The notes under the pieces were generated by a model. The model searched no databases, was not told the origin of the DNA, and saw only the letters and a list, made by a program, of their open reading frames with translations. Shown here piece after piece: positions 4,123 to 19,693 of a DNA stretch of 24,624 nt; the stretch's first letter is position 1, and every line of letters begins with the position of its first letter. The stretch is from an uncultured Gammaproteobacteria bacterium. GTDB taxonomy: Bacteria > Patescibacteriota > Microgenomatia > Curtissbacterales > GWA2-41-24. The stretch spans positions 1 to 24,624 of the forward strand of contig CAYHKI010000001.1 of the NCBI GenBank assembly GCA_964357165.1, read 5' to 3'. Both the position numbers and the translations under genes were made by a program.

Positions 4123-4151
4123 TTGACAATATGTACATATTGTACTAACAT
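4123..4151 (+). promoter_or_regulatory. Sigma70-like promoter of the TA operon with an 18-bp palindromic operator
   Basis: TTGACA (4123-4128), 17-nt spacer, TAACAT (4146-4151). Perfect palindrome ACAATATGTACATATTGT at 4126-4143. The ATG is 6 nt after the -10. Confidence 0.7.
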
Positions 4152-4157
4152 AGATTT

Positions 4158-4436
4158 ATGACTTTAAGTGTTTCTGTTGGGCAGTTTAGGCAGAATATTG
4201 CGGAATATATCGCAAAGGCTAATTCTGGGCATACTATTGTTTTAATAGATGAAAAGAAAGGTCAACAGTTGGTACAGATTGTGGGGAGCAAAAAGTTTGA
4301 TCCGGAGGCATTTGGAAAAGCATTAAAATCTTCTGCTGGTGTGTTTACTGCAAAAAATCATCCTGAATGGGCTACGAAAAAAAAGTTGAACGATTGGGTT
4401 AATAAAAGCCGTATTAATGACGAAAGAACATTCTAA
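4158..4436 (+). CDS. Phd/YefM-type antitoxin
   Basis: N-terminus SVSVGQFRQNIAEYIAKANSGHTIVL has the Phd/YefM pattern; 92 aa; directly upstream of a PIN gene. Confidence 0.75.
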   Translation: MTLSVSVGQFRQNIAEYIAKANSGHTIVLIDEKKGQQLVQIVGSKKFDPEAFGKALKSSAGVFTAKNHPEWATKKKLNDWVNKSRINDERTF

Positions 4437-4438
4437 TA

Positions 4439-4819
4439 ATGTTTTTAATAGACACAGATATTTTAATATGGGTTTTGAGAGGGAATTCACAATACGCAGA
4501 GTTTTTGCAAGACTTAAAGTACAAAGGCCCCCTTTCCATTTCCGCTGTAACTATTGCTGAGATTTATAAAAATGTTTTCCCTTCAGAAATTGTAAAGACG
4601 GAGAACGTATTAAATGAACTGCAAACTTGGGATGTGACTCCAGGCATTGCAAAGCAATCTGGTTTATATTGGCAAGAATACAGCAAAAAACTTAAAAACT
4701 TGAGTTTAACAGATTGTCTAATAGCGGCAACTGCGAATGTGAATAATCTGACCTTGGTTTCTCTCAATGCTCGCCATTTTCCGATGAAAGACATTAAGTT
4801 TCGCAACCCCTCAGTTTAA
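4439..4819 (+). CDS. vapC: PIN-domain toxin (VapC family)
   Basis: FLIDTDILI, SISAVTIAEI, LTDCLIAATA and LVSLNARHF carry the PIN acidic residues; 126 aa. Confidence 0.9.
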   Translation: MFLIDTDILIWVLRGNSQYAEFLQDLKYKGPLSISAVTIAEIYKNVFPSEIVKTENVLNELQTWDVTPGIAKQSGLYWQEYSKKLKNLSLTDCLIAATANVNNLTLVSLNARHFPMKDIKFRNPSV

Positions 4820-5951: not shown

Positions 5952-6305
5952 TTATGGGAGGGATTCTTCGTCGTAGGGATCTTCGTTGGCTTCTCGATGG
6001 CAAAGAGGATTTTTTGGGGCGAAACCTTCGTCTAAAAGTTGGTAAGAGATATTATTTCCTGTTATTGCGCTTCTATCTACCAAAACTCGAGCTTGATCTT
6101 CCTGGAAAATGTCATGAACTTCGGGATTCATGTCTAATTCTTCAGTTATGAATTCATGGACTAGGGTTTGAAAATGATCACTTTCTGTAATGGGTCTCAC
6201 AGCAGGGGTGGTTTCAGGCGTTTCTTTGGTTAGGCTTGATACAATTTCGTGAACCTCTTGTGAAAGGTCAATTTCTGATTGTCTAGCTTCTCTGCGGTTT
6301 GCCAT
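5952..6305 (-). CDS. Hypothetical acidic protein (117 aa)
   Basis: Open frame, co-oriented with its neighbours; no motif recognised. Confidence 0.65.
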   Translation of the reverse strand: MANRREARQSEIDLSQEVHEIVSSLTKETPETTPAVRPITESDHFQTLVHEFITEELDMNPEVHDIFQEDQARVLVDRSAITGNNISYQLLDEGFAPKNPLCHREANEDPYDEESLP

Positions 6306-6469
6306 ACAAAAAGCTGCAAGATACCTGCAGCTGATCTTAATTTTATTAAAGCTAATTTAGATTGTCAATACTTAATTTTAATATTGATTTTTCGACTTGA
6401 TGATTATATAGCGCAACACAAATACACAAATTTTAATTTGCATTAAACTAACTTTTGAGTCAATGTTTT

Positions 6470-6913
6470 TTATTTATACTTGGACTTTATTTGAAATATC
6501 AAGTAAAAACCAATTGCTGCACCAATTACGCTACCAATATTGATACCAATAATAGATGTCACGGCACTTATAACTTCGGCCCAAAAAAGCAGAGTCCAGC
6601 CGCTCATTTTGCCAGCTTTAAGACCAGGATAGGCCATAATCATGATGGCACTAGAGATAAGCCAGCCAATTGTGGCAACTATACCTAATCCAATGTTTTG
6701 TGCTACCCCGCCCACAGCCGCAACAGGCGCTAGAAACGATAGTGCACTAAGTGCGGAAATTGATAGCAATACTCCAAGAACTCCGAAAATCAGAGCTATC
6801 CAGGGAGTAATTTTAAAAAGTGTTTCTATGGCGTTTGCCGGTAAAGGTGGAAGTTTTTTAAACACATCTTCTAGTGAAGATTCAATTTGATTTGACAATT
6901 TTTTATCACTCAT
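6470..6913 (-). CDS. Multi-pass membrane protein of unknown function
   Basis: About four hydrophobic segments; strong SD (AGGGGGTGAT). Confidence 0.85.
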   Translation of the reverse strand: MSDKKLSNQIESSLEDVFKKLPPLPANAIETLFKITPWIALIFGVLGVLLSISALSALSFLAPVAAVGGVAQNIGLGIVATIGWLISSAIMIMAYPGLKAGKMSGWTLLFWAEVISAVTSIIGINIGSVIGAAIGFYLIFQIKSKYK

Positions 6914-15193: not shown

Positions 15194-15820
15194 CTAAGCT
15201 GCTTGTTGTGGTCTGATGCCTCTTCGGTATTGTCGATTAACCCCCGTCATGCGCACTCTATAATTATATAGAGTTTTACTAATAGCGTAGTCTTGTAAAA
15301 TCGTAAACAGAGGTGTGTGATTGTAAGCACAATGCTCCAAAACCGTTCTTGGTAGCAACAATGTTCCAGCAAACCAGTCAGCCTCTGCTTCTTGCCTTTC
15401 ATCAAAGGTTCGAAGGGCATAGCCAGATTCTGAAACAAACACTTTTGCAGCATCATGTTTCCTAATGATATGAGCCAGTTCGTGCATTAGATCAGTCGAT
15501 TGGCGAGCAACTGAATGGGTAGGGTTGATAAGGATAATTTCTTCTCCGTTAACCATAACCGTGACTGCAGACCACTCATCTCCTTGTGCAGAACTTAAGT
15601 ATTCTCTAGTTTCTTGACTAAGTCCTGCTACATCTTCCAATTTCCATACTTTAACAGACAGTTTTGCGGCCAATTCATAAGGTGATAACGGTGAGGAAGA
15701 ATTAACCCCAAGCCTTTTACGAATAGCAACAGATGTGTTCTCGCACCATGATTTAAAACCTCTTTCAAACAGGGTGTCTTGTTTTTTCTTGGTTAAAAGT
15801 ACTGCGGTGGATCTGCCCAT
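15194..15820 (-). CDS. ImmA/IrrE-family Zn metallopeptidase (CapP-like)
   Basis: HEXXH in STDLMHELAHII, a later QEAEADWFAGTLLLP motif and a C-terminal HTH-like segment. Confidence 0.9.
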   Translation of the reverse strand: MGRSTAVLLTKKKQDTLFERGFKSWCENTSVAIRKRLGVNSSSPLSPYELAAKLSVKVWKLEDVAGLSQETREYLSSAQGDEWSAVTVMVNGEEIILINPTHSVARQSTDLMHELAHIIRKHDAAKVFVSESGYALRTFDERQEAEADWFAGTLLLPRTVLEHCAYNHTPLFTILQDYAISKTLYNYRVRMTGVNRQYRRGIRPQQAA

Positions 15821-15833
15821 ATTTTCATTTTGT

Positions 15834-16163
15834 CTAAGAAGATTTATTTGAGGCAGACTTCTGGACGGCTAATATTAACTCAGCTAGGTGGCTGGCTGTT
15901 GAAGTGCTCATAGTTTTTTCAGCACGGAAATGAGCAACCGGCATCTGAGCATCATTGCCTGTTGATTGTTTCTTCCGGAATCCAAGAATGGAGCTTGGAT
16001 CTATTTCAAGCCATTTGCAAATTTTCGTAAAAGTATCAAGGTCTGGTTGCTTTCCAGACTCAATTCGCGAGAGAGTTGCGTGACCAATTCCAATCTCATT
16101 GGCAACTTCCCTTATGCCTCTGTTACCCCTCTTTTGTTTTAGTTTCAGGCTCAGTTCATCCAT
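15834..16163 (-). CDS. XRE-family HTH transcriptional regulator (CapH-like)
   Basis: IREVANEIGIGHATLSRIESGKQPDLDTFTKICKWL is an HTH_3 pattern; C-terminal helix; co-transcribed with the peptidase. Confidence 0.9.
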   Translation of the reverse strand: MDELSLKLKQKRGNRGIREVANEIGIGHATLSRIESGKQPDLDTFTKICKWLEIDPSSILGFRKKQSTGNDAQMPVAHFRAEKTMSTSTASHLAELILAVQKSASNKSS

Positions 16164-16172
16164 AGTATGAAG

Positions 16173-16231
16173 AGTATATCATTAATCCTACTGTTTTATC
16201 AATTGACACAAGACCTCATCTGTGAGACACT
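16173..16231. promoter_or_regulatory. Back-to-back divergent promoters between the HTH/peptidase pair and the CBASS-like operon
   Basis: Minus strand: TTGATA (16202-16197) with extended -10 TGaTATACT (16181-16173). Plus strand: TTGACA (16203-16208) with a weak -10. The adjacent -35 boxes create TCAATTGA. Confidence 0.5.
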
Positions 16232-16250
16232 AACAAAGTAATCAAATTTT

Positions 16251-16733
16251 ATGCCAAACCTAATAACAATTATACAATTTTTATGGCCGGTTGCAGCAGG
16301 AGCATTTGGAGCTTGGGGTTGGTTCCAATTATTCCGGAAAAAAGAGCAACGACTTTTTAAAAATCTCCAAAGACCAGTTGGAATAATCGCTACTCCAGAT
16401 AAACCAATGACGCACGAAGCAGTTTTGCTAAAAAGAGTTGGATTTTTTGATATTAAAGACCCCTCTTCGGACAGCAGAGCCTTGGATTTAATGAACGAAA
16501 ATAGGCTCGTTATCATCGGATACTCTCCAAACTCCCAAGCTTTTAAAGATGCTTTCAATACCGCTAAACAGCGCGAGGTTCCTGTTATTGTCTATGCCGG
16601 ACCAACACGAATATCGGACGAAGACATGAAGCTTCTCCAAAGCTATTCCCACCACTCGATGTGCAACACCCCCTTGAGATTAATATCTGACGTTTTTGCC
16701 ATGATGGGTACGCTGCCGGAGGAAGAAAAATGA
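16251..16733 (+). CDS. Single-TM protein with an alpha/beta (receiver/TIR/flavodoxin-like) cytoplasmic domain; candidate effector or accessory
   Basis: Hydrophobic residues ~3-27, then five alternating strand/helix units (VGIIA, FDIK, LVIIGY, VIVYA, HSMC). ATGA overlap with the CD-NTase. Confidence 0.75.
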   Translation: MPNLITIIQFLWPVAAGAFGAWGWFQLFRKKEQRLFKNLQRPVGIIATPDKPMTHEAVLLKRVGFFDIKDPSSDSRALDLMNENRLVIIGYSPNSQAFKDAFNTAKQREVPVIVYAGPTRISDEDMKLLQSYSHHSMCNTPLRLISDVFAMMGTLPEEEK

Positions 16734-17743
16734 ACGATGAGGCAATAAACCAAGTTATAAATAAGTACGTAAAAGAGCATCTTTCGCCAAAAGAAAAGCA
16801 GCGGGAATACATTAGTGAAAAATATGTTGAGCTTTGGGGTTTTTTAAAAGGTAGTTGTTTTCAAACAGGGTCTTATGCCAGGTATACCGCTATCGATCCA
16901 GTGCACGACTTAGACGTAATTCATCCGGTTGCCGACGTTAGCCTTCAAGATAACCCGTCCTTGGTTATTGATGCTTTGTACGCTATTTTGGAAGAAGAAT
17001 ATTCCGCCTCCGCTACTCGAATTAAAAAAATTTACAGGCAATCACACTCGGTGACCGTGGAATTTGACAATGCTACTGAAGAATTTAGCATCGACGTTGT
17101 GCCTTCGATAGAGCTGCCAAATGAGCAGAATGAGTATAAGCAACCTTTTTATCTGGTACCTGAAATTTTGCCCCTTAATAAGCACAACCGTCAACTTCGC
17201 TATGAAAAATCGGTCGAAGAGCCGATTGGCTGGATAAAGTCTGATCCTCGCGGTTATATTAAAGCCGCTTCAGATTTAAACGAAAAAAACAGTGACTTCC
17301 GCCACAGCGCTAAGTTGGTTAAGTCCTGGCGGCATGCTTGTAAAATGAATTATGGCGACGATTTTTGCCTTAAATCATTCCATCTGGAGCAGATCGTCTT
17401 TAATATTTTTTCAGATAACGAAGGAATTCTTGCATTGGACGCTATAACTGAAGCTTTGGCGGCAATTCCGGGCAATATTTCTGAACCCCAGATTCAAGAT
17501 AGGGCAGATTCTGAAAGATACATTGACGATTATGTTGAAGGGTTTACCCAAGAGCAGAAGAAACTTATTTTAAATCTACAGGCGGAAGCTTATGCAGTAG
17601 TGCGAAAATTATCCGGGTGCCAAACTGAACAAGAAGTTATGGAGAACCTCGACAGATTTCTTGCGGTTCGTAAAAAAACAACCAATTCTTCCGTTCTACC
17701 AATCGCCGCGCCAACTATTCCCAGGCAACCATGGAGTTATTAA
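16730..17743 (+). CDS. cGAS/DncV-like nucleotidyltransferase (CD-NTase, SMODS)
   Basis: FQTGSYARYTAIDPVHDLDVI (G47-S48, D60, D62), third acid in SIDVVP (D122), plus RQSHSV, WIKSDPRGY, KLVKSWR and LKSFHLEQ. Confidence 0.9.
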   Translation: MNDEAINQVINKYVKEHLSPKEKQREYISEKYVELWGFLKGSCFQTGSYARYTAIDPVHDLDVIHPVADVSLQDNPSLVIDALYAILEEEYSASATRIKKIYRQSHSVTVEFDNATEEFSIDVVPSIELPNEQNEYKQPFYLVPEILPLNKHNRQLRYEKSVEEPIGWIKSDPRGYIKAASDLNEKNSDFRHSAKLVKSWRHACKMNYGDDFCLKSFHLEQIVFNIFSDNEGILALDAITEALAAIPGNISEPQIQDRADSERYIDDYVEGFTQEQKKLILNLQAEAYAVVRKLSGCQTEQEVMENLDRFLAVRKKTTNSSVLPIAAPTIPRQPWSY

Positions 17744-17756
17744 AGATGAGGTGTTT

Positions 17757-18488
17757 ATGTGGTCTGCAAGCGACTTCAAGTGGTTAAGGGGGAACTACCC
17801 GGCTCTTAAAAAAACATCTTCCCAGATGCTCGAGGGAAGAGTTTATTTTCAAATGCTTAGACTCAATGGTCAATACTTCGTCAATCCTTCTCTAAGCCAA
17901 ATTCAACAGTCTGCAGCCCCCGATTACCTTTATCTTTGTGGAAGTTATGGAATAAGTATCGAATGGAACCAACCCAACGGTTTACCCATGTCACGCGAGA
18001 CAGGTGGAAAATTTGCCGCGGTAGCAGCAAGGTTGGGCAAGGACAACAAGGACATGCATATTTATCCAGACGGAACCCTTTGCTTGGCCGCACCAATGGA
18101 TTTAGATATTGAGCTAGCCAGGGGTTTAAGGTTGGAAACTTATATCGAAGGGTTTCTTGTGCCGTATTTATTTGCCCAAACCTATTATGCCAAGACTCGA
18201 GTTTGGCTGTGGGGAGAACTCAGCCATGGTGTTTGGGGACTATTAGAATGGCTGGGCCGAAAAAAAGACTACGAGTCTGATGACGCGCGGCGTACTTATT
18301 CCAGGCTTTTGGTTTATGCCAAACAGGAAAATACTGATGTAAAAGCGATTTTGGCCACAAGATGTCGCAATCACAAACCTTGCCCTTGCGGCTCCACCAA
18401 GAAAACCCGCAGTTGTCATCCAGACGTGCAACCGGGCATTGCCCGCCTGCGTAGCGCGATAAACAGTGGGTTAATCGAAACAAGTTGA
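17757..18488 (+). CDS. Prokaryotic E2 (ubiquitin-conjugating-like) protein fused to a SEC-C zinc-binding motif
   Basis: HIYPDGTLCL has the E2-type catalytic Cys (C109, codon 18081-18083), followed by LVPYLFAQTYY...WLWGELSHG. C-terminal RNHKPCPCGSTKKTRSCH is a SEC-C motif. Start at ATG 17757 after SD GAGGTG. Confidence 0.75.
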   Translation: MWSASDFKWLRGNYPALKKTSSQMLEGRVYFQMLRLNGQYFVNPSLSQIQQSAAPDYLYLCGSYGISIEWNQPNGLPMSRETGGKFAAVAARLGKDNKDMHIYPDGTLCLAAPMDLDIELARGLRLETYIEGFLVPYLFAQTYYAKTRVWLWGELSHGVWGLLEWLGRKKDYESDDARRTYSRLLVYAKQENTDVKAILATRCRNHKPCPCGSTKKTRSCHPDVQPGIARLRSAINSGLIETS

Positions 18489-18489
18489 T

Positions 18490-19693
18490 TTAGGGATTGT
18501 TCTGAAATGATTTTTGCATCAAAGAGTGAAATTGAGTATCTAACTCTTCTGATTGGGTGAGCATTTTTTTCTTAAGGTTACTAACGCCACTAGCAACTTC
18601 GCTGTATTTAAGTTGAAGATTTAAAGGTGGAATCAAAGCTGGATAATTTTTAAGTTGAGTTAATATTGATGGTTGCGATACCAGTAGTTTGCTTTGCAGA
18701 TTTTAAGAAGTATTTCTTGCCACGAGCGGATCCAATTTGAGCACTTATATACTCAGGTAATGCAACCTGATTGTTTAAGCGAACCCTGAAAATATGATTT
18801 TGATGTATACAATTATCGACTTCTCCTCTCCAGATCCCCCCTCGTCCAAGTTTGTCTGGATCACCACCTTCTGTTAACAACAAGTCCCCAATTATCAGTC
18901 GATACTTCTCGACGTCGCTTGGTAATACTTCTATCTCTTTAATTTCAGATAAATCTATACGTTCATCTTGAACGTTAGCAACTCGCATATAAGGAGTATG
19001 AACAGTCTTTGAATTTCCGAATTTCCGACCCTTTGTTACTCCGGAACAAATGTCTGAAATTTCATCCAACATTTTTAAGTTCCAGTTTTTGGAGTTTGTA
19101 TTTTGATCTCCAAACATTTCGAAGTAAACAGATTTTAAGTATTCATCCAAAAGGTTAATTGCTTGTTTACGTTTTTGGCCAAGAGATTTAGCTTGATCAA
19201 GCATCCTCACTGTCCGCTTCTGTTCCTCTAGTGAGGGCACGTCAAATTTAATTTTTTCTAAGTTACTTCTTGAAATTCTCTGTCGGGTTGTGCCTGTTAC
19301 ATATTTTTGAATTTGCCGTCTAAATTGTTGGTCGTTTATTTTATACATCAACCATTCTGGCAACACTGCTTTTATGTCTGGCCTCACTATGCAAACATCT
19401 ACAACTGTTACACATCGGGTATCAAGCTTTGGGAAGATACACGCCCTACCAATGGGATCGGGCATTCTTGCGATTAATACATCTCCAGGTGTTAAAAAAG
19501 TACATTTTAATTCCAAAGCTTTTTCTGGGGTAAGATATCTATTAGATTTATTGATGAATGTCCCTTCTCCAATATCTGCAAGCTGAATTAATCTTACTGA
19601 TCCACTTGGATCTTGGTCTTTACTTTCAATCCAATCTCCATCTATGAAAATTCCATCTTTTCCAATGATTTGACTTAGTGAAACCTGTTTCAT
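18490..19693 (-). pseudogene. hsdS: Type I RM specificity subunit with a 1-nt insertion frameshift near 18661-18664
   Basis: TRD1, central conserved region PSLEEQKR...EMFGD, TRD2. The annotated frame stops at 18650, but the shifted frame continues TQLKNYPALIPPLNLQLKY...SLMQKSFQNNP* to TAA at 18490-18492. Confidence 0.85.

Follow-up and report, generated by a model that had tools for sequence, protein, structure and literature searches.

E2-only CBASS (anti-phage systems that signal through cyclic oligonucleotides, type II short) are the closest described relatives of the locus studied here, a three-gene operon at positions 16251-18488 of a 24,624-nucleotide stretch of contig CAYHKI010000001.1 (hereafter the window, meaning that whole stretch). 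In the characterised CdnG-E2 system of Serratia marcescens, the E2 protein cuts at a Gly near the C-terminus of its cyclase, a nucleotidyltransferase of the cGAS/DncV-like kind (CD-NTase), and forms a covalent adduct, and clade-G CD-NTases make up 74% of E2-CBASS (PMC12948482). Membrane proteins are the commonest class of CBASS effectors, at more than 40% of the total (PMC12480259). One such label, "1TM" (TM for transmembrane), is an effector class of the CBASS classification of Millman et al. 2020, and is used in 10.1101/2022.04.27.489752 and PMC12480259. Type III CRISPR systems provide further points of comparison. In the survey by Shah et al. 2018 (PMC6546367) of genes accessory to type III CRISPR, C3a59 is cluster 59. 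Cam2 is a candidate type III effector made of TM and receiver (REC) parts and predicted to bind cyclic triadenylate, cA3 (Hoikkala et al. 2024, PMC11229360). Csx23 and Cam1, as summarised in PMC11229360, are characterised membrane effectors of type III CRISPR gated by cyclic tetra-adenylate (cA4). Our literature search found no experimental papers on Cam2, C3a59 or CBASS 1TM effectors, and no published mechanism for the single-TM class of CBASS effectors.

Our results suggest, with a probability of about 70%, that the window locus is an E2-type (type II short) CBASS with the gene order effector, CD-NTase, E2, in which a 160-aa protein acts as a cyclic-oligonucleotide-gated, membrane-disrupting effector. 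As in the E2-CBASS of Serratia, the CD-NTase is followed by a single E2 with a catalytic Cys, without E1 or JAB, the effector is encoded in the same operon, and the C-terminal tail of the cyclase is conserved, with a small residue near its end (PMC12948482). The differences lie in the details: the cyclase has 337 aa and is clade C/D-like, whereas E2-CBASS typically use extended-length clade-G enzymes, and the E2, of 243 aa, differs by additional N-terminal sequence and by its SEC-C-like knuckle. The locus thus has the defining features of E2-only CBASS, and its short C/D-like cyclase is atypical among them.

A protein known to defence catalogues

A previous reading of the same DNA, made from the sequence without database searches (the sequence-only reading), recognised no effector in the operon, and proposed the 160-aa protein as an undescribed receptor and the locus as the best candidate for a new system. 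Without tools no effector can indeed be recognised, but current defence catalogues contradict this view, since two PADLOC models match the 160-aa protein. The first, PDLC01057 "C3a59, trans-membrane", covers it almost from end to end (E 5.7e-23, residues 3-155 on model positions 14-163 of 167), and the second, the CBASS model PDLC00664 "Effector, 1TM", covers the soluble domain (E 5.8e-7, residues 41-154). Because the latter match is far weaker than the one to C3a59, the protein belongs to a sister group of the sequences behind PDLC00664. Its C-terminus also matches weakly the PADLOC model Mem_04, of a type III CRISPR membrane protein. With the other two genes matching the Cyclase and E2 models, the whole operon is covered by the CBASS model set of PADLOC. 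Pfam and NCBIfam matches of the 160-aa protein (MCR_C, methanogenesis marker 7, GspB) were discarded as noise.

The protein shares with C3a59 a full-length profile match, its size and the annotated TM segment, and one relative, P0187, lies in a type III CRISPR-Cas locus. The two differ in their partners: C3a59 is catalogued as an accessory family of type III CRISPR, whereas the window copy and its inspected relatives are wired to CD-NTases and not to Cas10 (24 of 26 loci in all). With the CBASS 1TM class it has in common its small size, the single TM segment and its place in the effector slot. The likeness to Cam2 is one of description: both have an N-terminal TM part (a helix or helices in Cam2) and a receiver-like domain without a partner histidine kinase, and the role predicted for Cam2, a membrane disruption gated by cyclic oligoadenylates, with cA3 as proposed ligand, is the one that we propose here (PMC11229360). 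In Cam2, on the other hand, the length of the TM regions varies, and the source reports no connection with CBASS (PMC11229360). The proposed effector probably also shares with Csx23 and Cam1, as these are summarised in that source, a small N-terminal TM part, a cytoplasmic nucleotide-sensing domain, an oligomeric state and the perturbation of membranes. Yet its sensing domain is receiver-like, whereas that of Cam1 is a CARF and that of Csx23 has its own fold, and there is no sequence relation to the solved chains. Searches of the chains in the PDB, either with the protein alone or with the family profile, gave no relatives, and by sequence it is therefore neither Csx23, nor Cam1, nor any solved effector.

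The protein is thus not undescribed: its family is the C3a59 of PADLOC, is related to the 1TM model and fits the description of Cam2. It matches an already described effector at the level of catalogues (C3a59, 1TM), not at the experimental level. As E2-only CBASS is an already characterised class (PMC12948482), the window holds a catalogued effector family in a characterised class of systems, not a new kind of system.

Organization of the operon

Three co-directional genes emerge from the six-frame list of open reading frames (ORFs):

16251..16733, plus strand: effector of 160 aa with a single TM segment (six-frame ORF list, PADLOC, AlphaFold2)
16730..17743, plus strand: CD-NTase of 337 aa (ORF list, PADLOC Cyclase, Pfam SMODS)
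17757..18488, plus strand: lone E2-like protein of 243 aa (PADLOC E2 models, alignment of homologues)

The tight coupling noted by the sequence-only reading can be read directly at 16730-16733, where an ATGA preceded by GGAGG makes the overlap between the 160-aa gene and that of the CD-NTase. The third open frame extends over 17661-18488 (stop codon 18486-18488). Its most likely start is the ATG at 17757, 13 nt past the TAA of the CD-NTase, because the third protein begins with MW[ST]xxD in all 8 aligned homologues, at 4-13 nt past the cyclase stop. The effector gene is the best conserved of the three: relative to the homologous locus L001, its identity is 75%, while the CD-NTase has 57% and the E2 51%. 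A 119-aa antisense ORF (16199-16558) was judged spurious, since it lies within and opposite the conserved effector gene.

The ORF list shows neither E1 nor JAB among the genes of the operon, nor is there room for them, because a convergent hsdS closes it. This gene had been placed 1 nt beyond the operon, which stands for its tail frame on the minus strand, whose stop at 18490-18492 is 1 nt past that of the E2, but not for its main frame, which ends at 18650. The hsdS gene is frameshifted: the main frame (18650-19693, minus strand) ends with ININST, and the distal conserved helix of HsdS is encoded in the other frame (18490-18702). The absence of patatin, SAVED, nuclease, 2TM/4TM and STING domains from the operon, already noted without tools, was borne out by Pfam, NCBIfam and PADLOC.

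The cyclase had been described as intact, and the PADLOC and SMODS matches and the conserved motifs confirm it. The CD-NTase matches the PADLOC Cyclase model PDLC00785 (E 1.2e-80) and Pfam SMODS (44.9 bits for a cut-off of 26.5), and scores under the cut-off of the NCBIfam models of CBASS cyclases (79.6 for 200 bits). Its GS...[DE]x[DE]...D active site is intact, with G47-S48, D60-x-D62 and D122 invariant across 11 family members. The solved enzymes closest to its profile are PaCdnD of clade D (6P82, E 2.9e-19) and EcCdnC (6P80, E 3.9e-14), two synthases of cAAA. The E2 matches the corresponding PADLOC models (E 3.6e-26 to 1e-24), and carries H101 and C109 in MHIYPDGTLCL and a SEC-C-like knuckle, CPCGS...SCH, at 209-221. 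Both the MHxYxxxGxLC motif and the CxCxS...CH knuckle are conserved in 8 homologues, and the sequence has no match in the PDB. The residue numbers given earlier for mutagenesis (D60, D62 and C109) are correct.

By analogy with the CdnG-E2 of Serratia, the E2 probably regulates the cyclase. The CD-NTases linked to E2 in the loci L001-L008 and in the window end with a P-x-x-P-W-[G/A/S]-x tail with invariant W, which in the window (17720-17743) reads PWSY, with a Ser where the characterised E2-CBASS has a Gly. Given the position of the Gly at which the E2 of Serratia cuts, near the C-terminus, the removal of a single residue from this tail is plausible.

A pseudo-receiver anchored in the membrane

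The AlphaFold2 model of the 160-aa protein, built on an alignment of 38 sequences (pLDDT 88.5, pTM 0.77), has one TM helix and a receiver-like (βα)5 domain. A long helix (residues 2-39) precedes the globular domain, which consists of β1 (42-46), α1 (54-63), α2 (75-83), β3 (86-90), α3 (96-107), β4 (112-115), α4 (123-130), β5 (135-138) and α5 (141-154). The hydrophobic maximum spans residues 4-22 and is followed by RKKEQR, so that the globular domain should be cytoplasmic. The TM helix also holds a motif of small residues, G17-x-x-G20-x-x-G23. This helix and the linkage to CD-NTases agree with the earlier placement of the protein, membrane-anchored, in the effector slot.

Searches with Foldseek in the PDB retrieved mainly receiver domains of response regulators (TM-score up to 0.70 by target), and other flavodoxin-like folds. 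Independently of Foldseek, VIA-align aligned dozens of receiver domains (Z 11-12, rmsd 2.6-3.2 Å, 103-121 residues), and searches of AFDB and of the ESM Atlas concur, their closest clusters being unnamed hypothetical proteins. REC domains are the commonest structural match among those listed, and no TIR, CARF, SAVED or STING structure is among the top matches. No specific ligand-binding relative emerged from Foldseek (PDB, AFDB) or from a wide VIA-align search. The fold had been called receiver-like or TIR-like, and only the first part survives: neither of the PDB fold searches has a TIR among its best 50 matches, Pfam and PADLOC give no TIR match either, and we therefore rejected the second.

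A canonical phospho-receiver was also rejected, because the acceptor Asp is absent from the end of β3, where the protein has G90-Y91 at the position of the phospho-acceptor (76% of the family have Y91). Among 129 representatives of the family, conservation stays below the 50% threshold for any Asp after β1, and lacking both the acceptor and a conserved acidic residue after β1, the domain is a pseudo-receiver. The Pfam model Response_reg (PF00072) does not match the protein even at E <= 1. What the family keeps instead, in at least 70% of the representatives, is R34, N38, R41, F66, Y91, P111, I113, Y115, Y132, N139, R143 and L144, and the conserved Arg, Asn and Tyr persist in the CRISPR-linked member too. 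R34, N38 and R41 sit on the helix that links the TM segment to β1. Y91, Y115, N139 and R143 are at, or just past, the C-terminal ends of β3, β4 and β5, and with Y132 they make a polar cluster, conserved family-wide, on what is the active-site face of receiver domains.

Genomic context of the family

Close relatives alone, grouped at 90% identity, make 67 clusters of the family, and an exhaustive profile search gave about 200 clusters at 50%, with most full-length representatives having 150-195 aa. The only name given to any member in the sources is "hypothetical protein". The C3a59 model of PADLOC also matches the relatives P0073, P0139, P0163 and P0187. We inspected 26 loci with small homologues, the window included, for the linkage to CD-NTases suggested earlier as a check, and found an intact CD-NTase directly adjoining the small gene in 24 (the window, L001-L014, the P0100 locus, L019, L021, L023, L027, L028, L030, L031 and L032). 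One of the other two (L015/L016) has HORMA and TRIP13 genes with a remnant of the CD-NTase limited to its C-terminal third. The other (L018) is the type III CRISPR-Cas locus of P0187, a distant member of the family, which lies between Csx1 and Cas6-RT-Cas1 in a neighbourhood that also includes RAMPs, Csx19 and Cas2.

The partner cyclases come in four designs: E2-only in the majority of cases, bare type I (L009, L028), with HORMA/TRIP13 (L010), or with SMODS fused to AGS_C (L012-14, L032). The small gene is usually the first of the operon, but is the last in L031. Such combinations of one small protein with varied cyclase designs, at either end of the operon, are what one expects from an exchangeable effector module responding to cyclic oligonucleotides.

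Several of these loci deserve mention in their own right. The region 828-6552 of L015 (and also L016) is a decayed type III CBASS, with HORMA, TRIP13, the C-terminal third of the CD-NTase (4128-4472) and an intact TM effector. In L031, where the order is SMODS, E2-like, effector, and where a serine recombinase gene adjoins, the family member (6001-6537) is properly translated only when TGA is read as Trp, hence the family reaches genomes with an alternative genetic code. Two genes directly downstream of the cyclase in variants without E2 (L012:7795-9069, 424 aa, and L009:7811-8746, 311 aa) have no match in Pfam or PADLOC, and are possible undescribed CBASS accessory genes. Finally, the 971-aa protein P0196 (L025:699-3614) matches the pseudo-receiver profile three times, each time weakly, and has neither informative Pfam domains nor a cyclase nearby. 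We treated it as a family outlier on account of the weak triple match and the missing cyclase, and it may be a repeat protein made of the same pseudo-receiver domain.

Proposed mechanism and alternative explanations

We propose that infection, together with de-repression through the CapP/CapH-like regulators encoded upstream, would lead the E2-regulated CD-NTase to make a cyclic oligonucleotide. This molecule would bind the pseudo-receiver domains of an oligomer of the 160-aa protein, at a predicted site formed by the cluster of Arg, Asn and Tyr on the former active-site face. The juxtamembrane helix, with R34, N38 and R41, would relay the occupancy of the site to the TM helices, and the ensuing loss of membrane integrity or potential would result in growth arrest or abortive infection. 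In this scheme, the structure of the genes, the family membership, the fold and the linkage to cyclases come from our observations, and the binding of a ligand and its identity, the oligomeric state and the disruption of membranes are predictions. Our best guess for the ligand, a weak one, is cyclic tri-AMP, because the profile of the cyclase is nearest to the cAAA synthases PaCdnD and EcCdnC and because Cam2 is a predicted sensor of cA3.

The comparison across loci leads to a broader proposal, which we hold to be slightly better supported than not: TM pseudo-receivers would form a distinct class of cyclic-oligonucleotide receptors, different from CARF, SAVED, STING and Cap15-like proteins, and a killing module interchangeable between CBASS (E2-only, type I, HORMA/TRIP13, AGS_C) and type III CRISPR-Cas. 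They would bind the ligand at the former phosphorylation face, and relay this binding to the single TM helix via the Arg/Asn juxtamembrane helix.

Several observations weigh against the effector reading. The CD-NTase matches the solved enzymes chiefly over its N-terminal 135 residues. The CRISPR-linked relative P0187 adjoins Csx1, which is usually an effector of cA4 or cA6, and this makes cA3 a guess. The TM segment is moderately hydrophobic (maximum KD19 1.56). The receiver fold is generic, with SIS domains, flavodoxins and GTPase domains scoring as well, and thus the fold alone is uninformative on the ligand. The effector function, when extended to the whole 160-aa family, is putative.

The alternative that fares best, although we consider it unlikely, is that the 160-aa protein is not the nucleotide receptor. 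It would serve instead as an anchor in the membrane, or else as a partner or substrate of the E2 and the CD-NTase, with protein conjugation at the membrane, and not a second messenger, carrying the output of the system. Most operons do have an E2, the E2s of E2-CBASS form covalent adducts with their cyclases (PMC12948482), and ligand binding by the 160-aa family is putative. However, the family also occurs with cyclases lacking an E2, of type I (L009, L028), with HORMA/TRIP13 (L010) or with AGS_C (L012-14), and one member is in a type III CRISPR locus without CD-NTase and E2. The sole partner common to all these settings is a synthase of cyclic oligonucleotides.

The inverse wiring has a precedent. 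In a guard logic like that of Panoptes, a nucleotide produced constitutively would hold the membrane effector off, and phage sponges or nucleases removing it would trigger membrane damage. The CARF-TM effector of type II Panoptes is kept inactive by cA3, according to PMC13577387, so that the reverse wiring is possible for a small TM effector. We regard this as less likely again for the window, because the synthase is not an mCpol but a CD-NTase, regulated across the family by E2, HORMA/TRIP13 or AGS_C. Regulators of these kinds are known to activate or prime synthesis upon infection, and control by repressors, CapH/CapP or LexA-like, is in keeping with an output that is turned on and toxic.

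It is more improbable still that the soluble domain is a membrane-tethered enzyme, either a TIR-like NADase or a nucleosidase resembling nucleoside 2-deoxyribosyltransferases, that kills by depleting a metabolite. Its flavodoxin-like fold, weak structural matches to models of nucleoside 2-deoxyribosyltransferases (rank 29; row 10) and the near invariance of H55-E56 among close relatives might suggest so. Yet, these residues fade in the wider family (H55 under 50%, E56 65%), and the CRISPR-linked member has other residues at the two positions. The PDB fold searches, with no TIR among the best 50 matches of either, and the lack of any enzymatic family matching the protein in Pfam or PADLOC also speak against this reading. 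Least probable of all is a true effector encoded in trans with the 160-aa gene as an unrelated passenger, since the linkage to the cyclase, often with overlapping start and stop codons, is kept in relatives down to about 30% identity, and the window's own assembly, which being 81% complete leaves room for distant genes, has one SMODS gene and no patatin.

Regulation and mobility

The operon is preceded by regulatory genes on the opposite strand and by a divergent intergenic region:

15194..15820, minus strand: CapP-like metallopeptidase of 208 aa with a HELAH motif (Pfam Peptidase_M78, E 8e-15)
15834..16163, minus strand: CapH-like XRE-type helix-turn-helix (HTH) repressor of 109 aa (Pfam HTH_3, E 2.1e-8)
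16164..16250, no strand: divergent promoter/operator region of 87 nt, putatively shared

These genes have the arrangement of CapH/CapP, i.e., an XRE HTH gene and an IrrE/M78 peptidase gene, divergent from the CBASS core and with a common promoter region. The pair is upstream of the operon in the window, L003 and L006, and the CapH-like protein is 83% (L003) and 73% (L006) identical to the products of the upstream genes. The 87-nt gap has a TTGACA on the plus strand (16203-16208), a promoter-like site on the minus strand (16202-16173), and palindromes that are all short and imperfect. A direct repeat GACAC...GACAC and an imperfect inverted repeat CACAAGA/TCTGTG, at 16203-16231, are a candidate CapH operator. 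In other loci (L012:5299-5931, L030:163-789, L031:3416-4012 and the P0100 locus), a LexA-like or S24-peptidase gene, upstream and on the same strand, replaces the CapH/CapP pair. Since DNA damage is the cue to which LexA-type repressors respond, the core of effector and cyclase may have two alternative switches that react to damage.

The operon is carried on a mobilisable island, preceded in the window by a coupling-protein gene and a Replic_Relax gene, in a small genome resembling those of the candidate phyla radiation (CPR), whose assembly has 140 contigs and about 1.0 Mb. Among named homologues, the closest belong to metagenome-assembled genomes of Microgenomates, Saccharibacteria and Parcubacteria. 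The family was found in 3 of the 401 genomes sampled from the phylum of the host, a rarity that fits recent acquisition on a mobile island. The same pair of coupling-protein and Replic_Relax genes flanks the decayed system of L015, which suggests that the window and L015 share a type of mobile element with a variable slot for defence cargo. In the distant homologous operon of L030 (163-7325), a LexA-like gene, the TM effector, SMODS and E2 are followed by a convergent type I restriction-modification set (hsdS, hsdM, hsdR), as beside the window operon, and CBASS and type I restriction-modification may thus be a recurrent island module.

Significance

The authors who described Cam2 call it a priority for study, as receiver domains are not known to sense nucleotides (PMC11229360). 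In this respect, the window supplies a short and well-folded member with a defined cognate cyclase and E2. Our analysis may add to previous knowledge a list of residues conserved family-wide, and the notion that one family of TM pseudo-receivers serves type III CRISPR and several designs of CBASS. If these proteins are indeed a distinct class of receptors, the copy in the window would be a compact model of it, in 160 aa.

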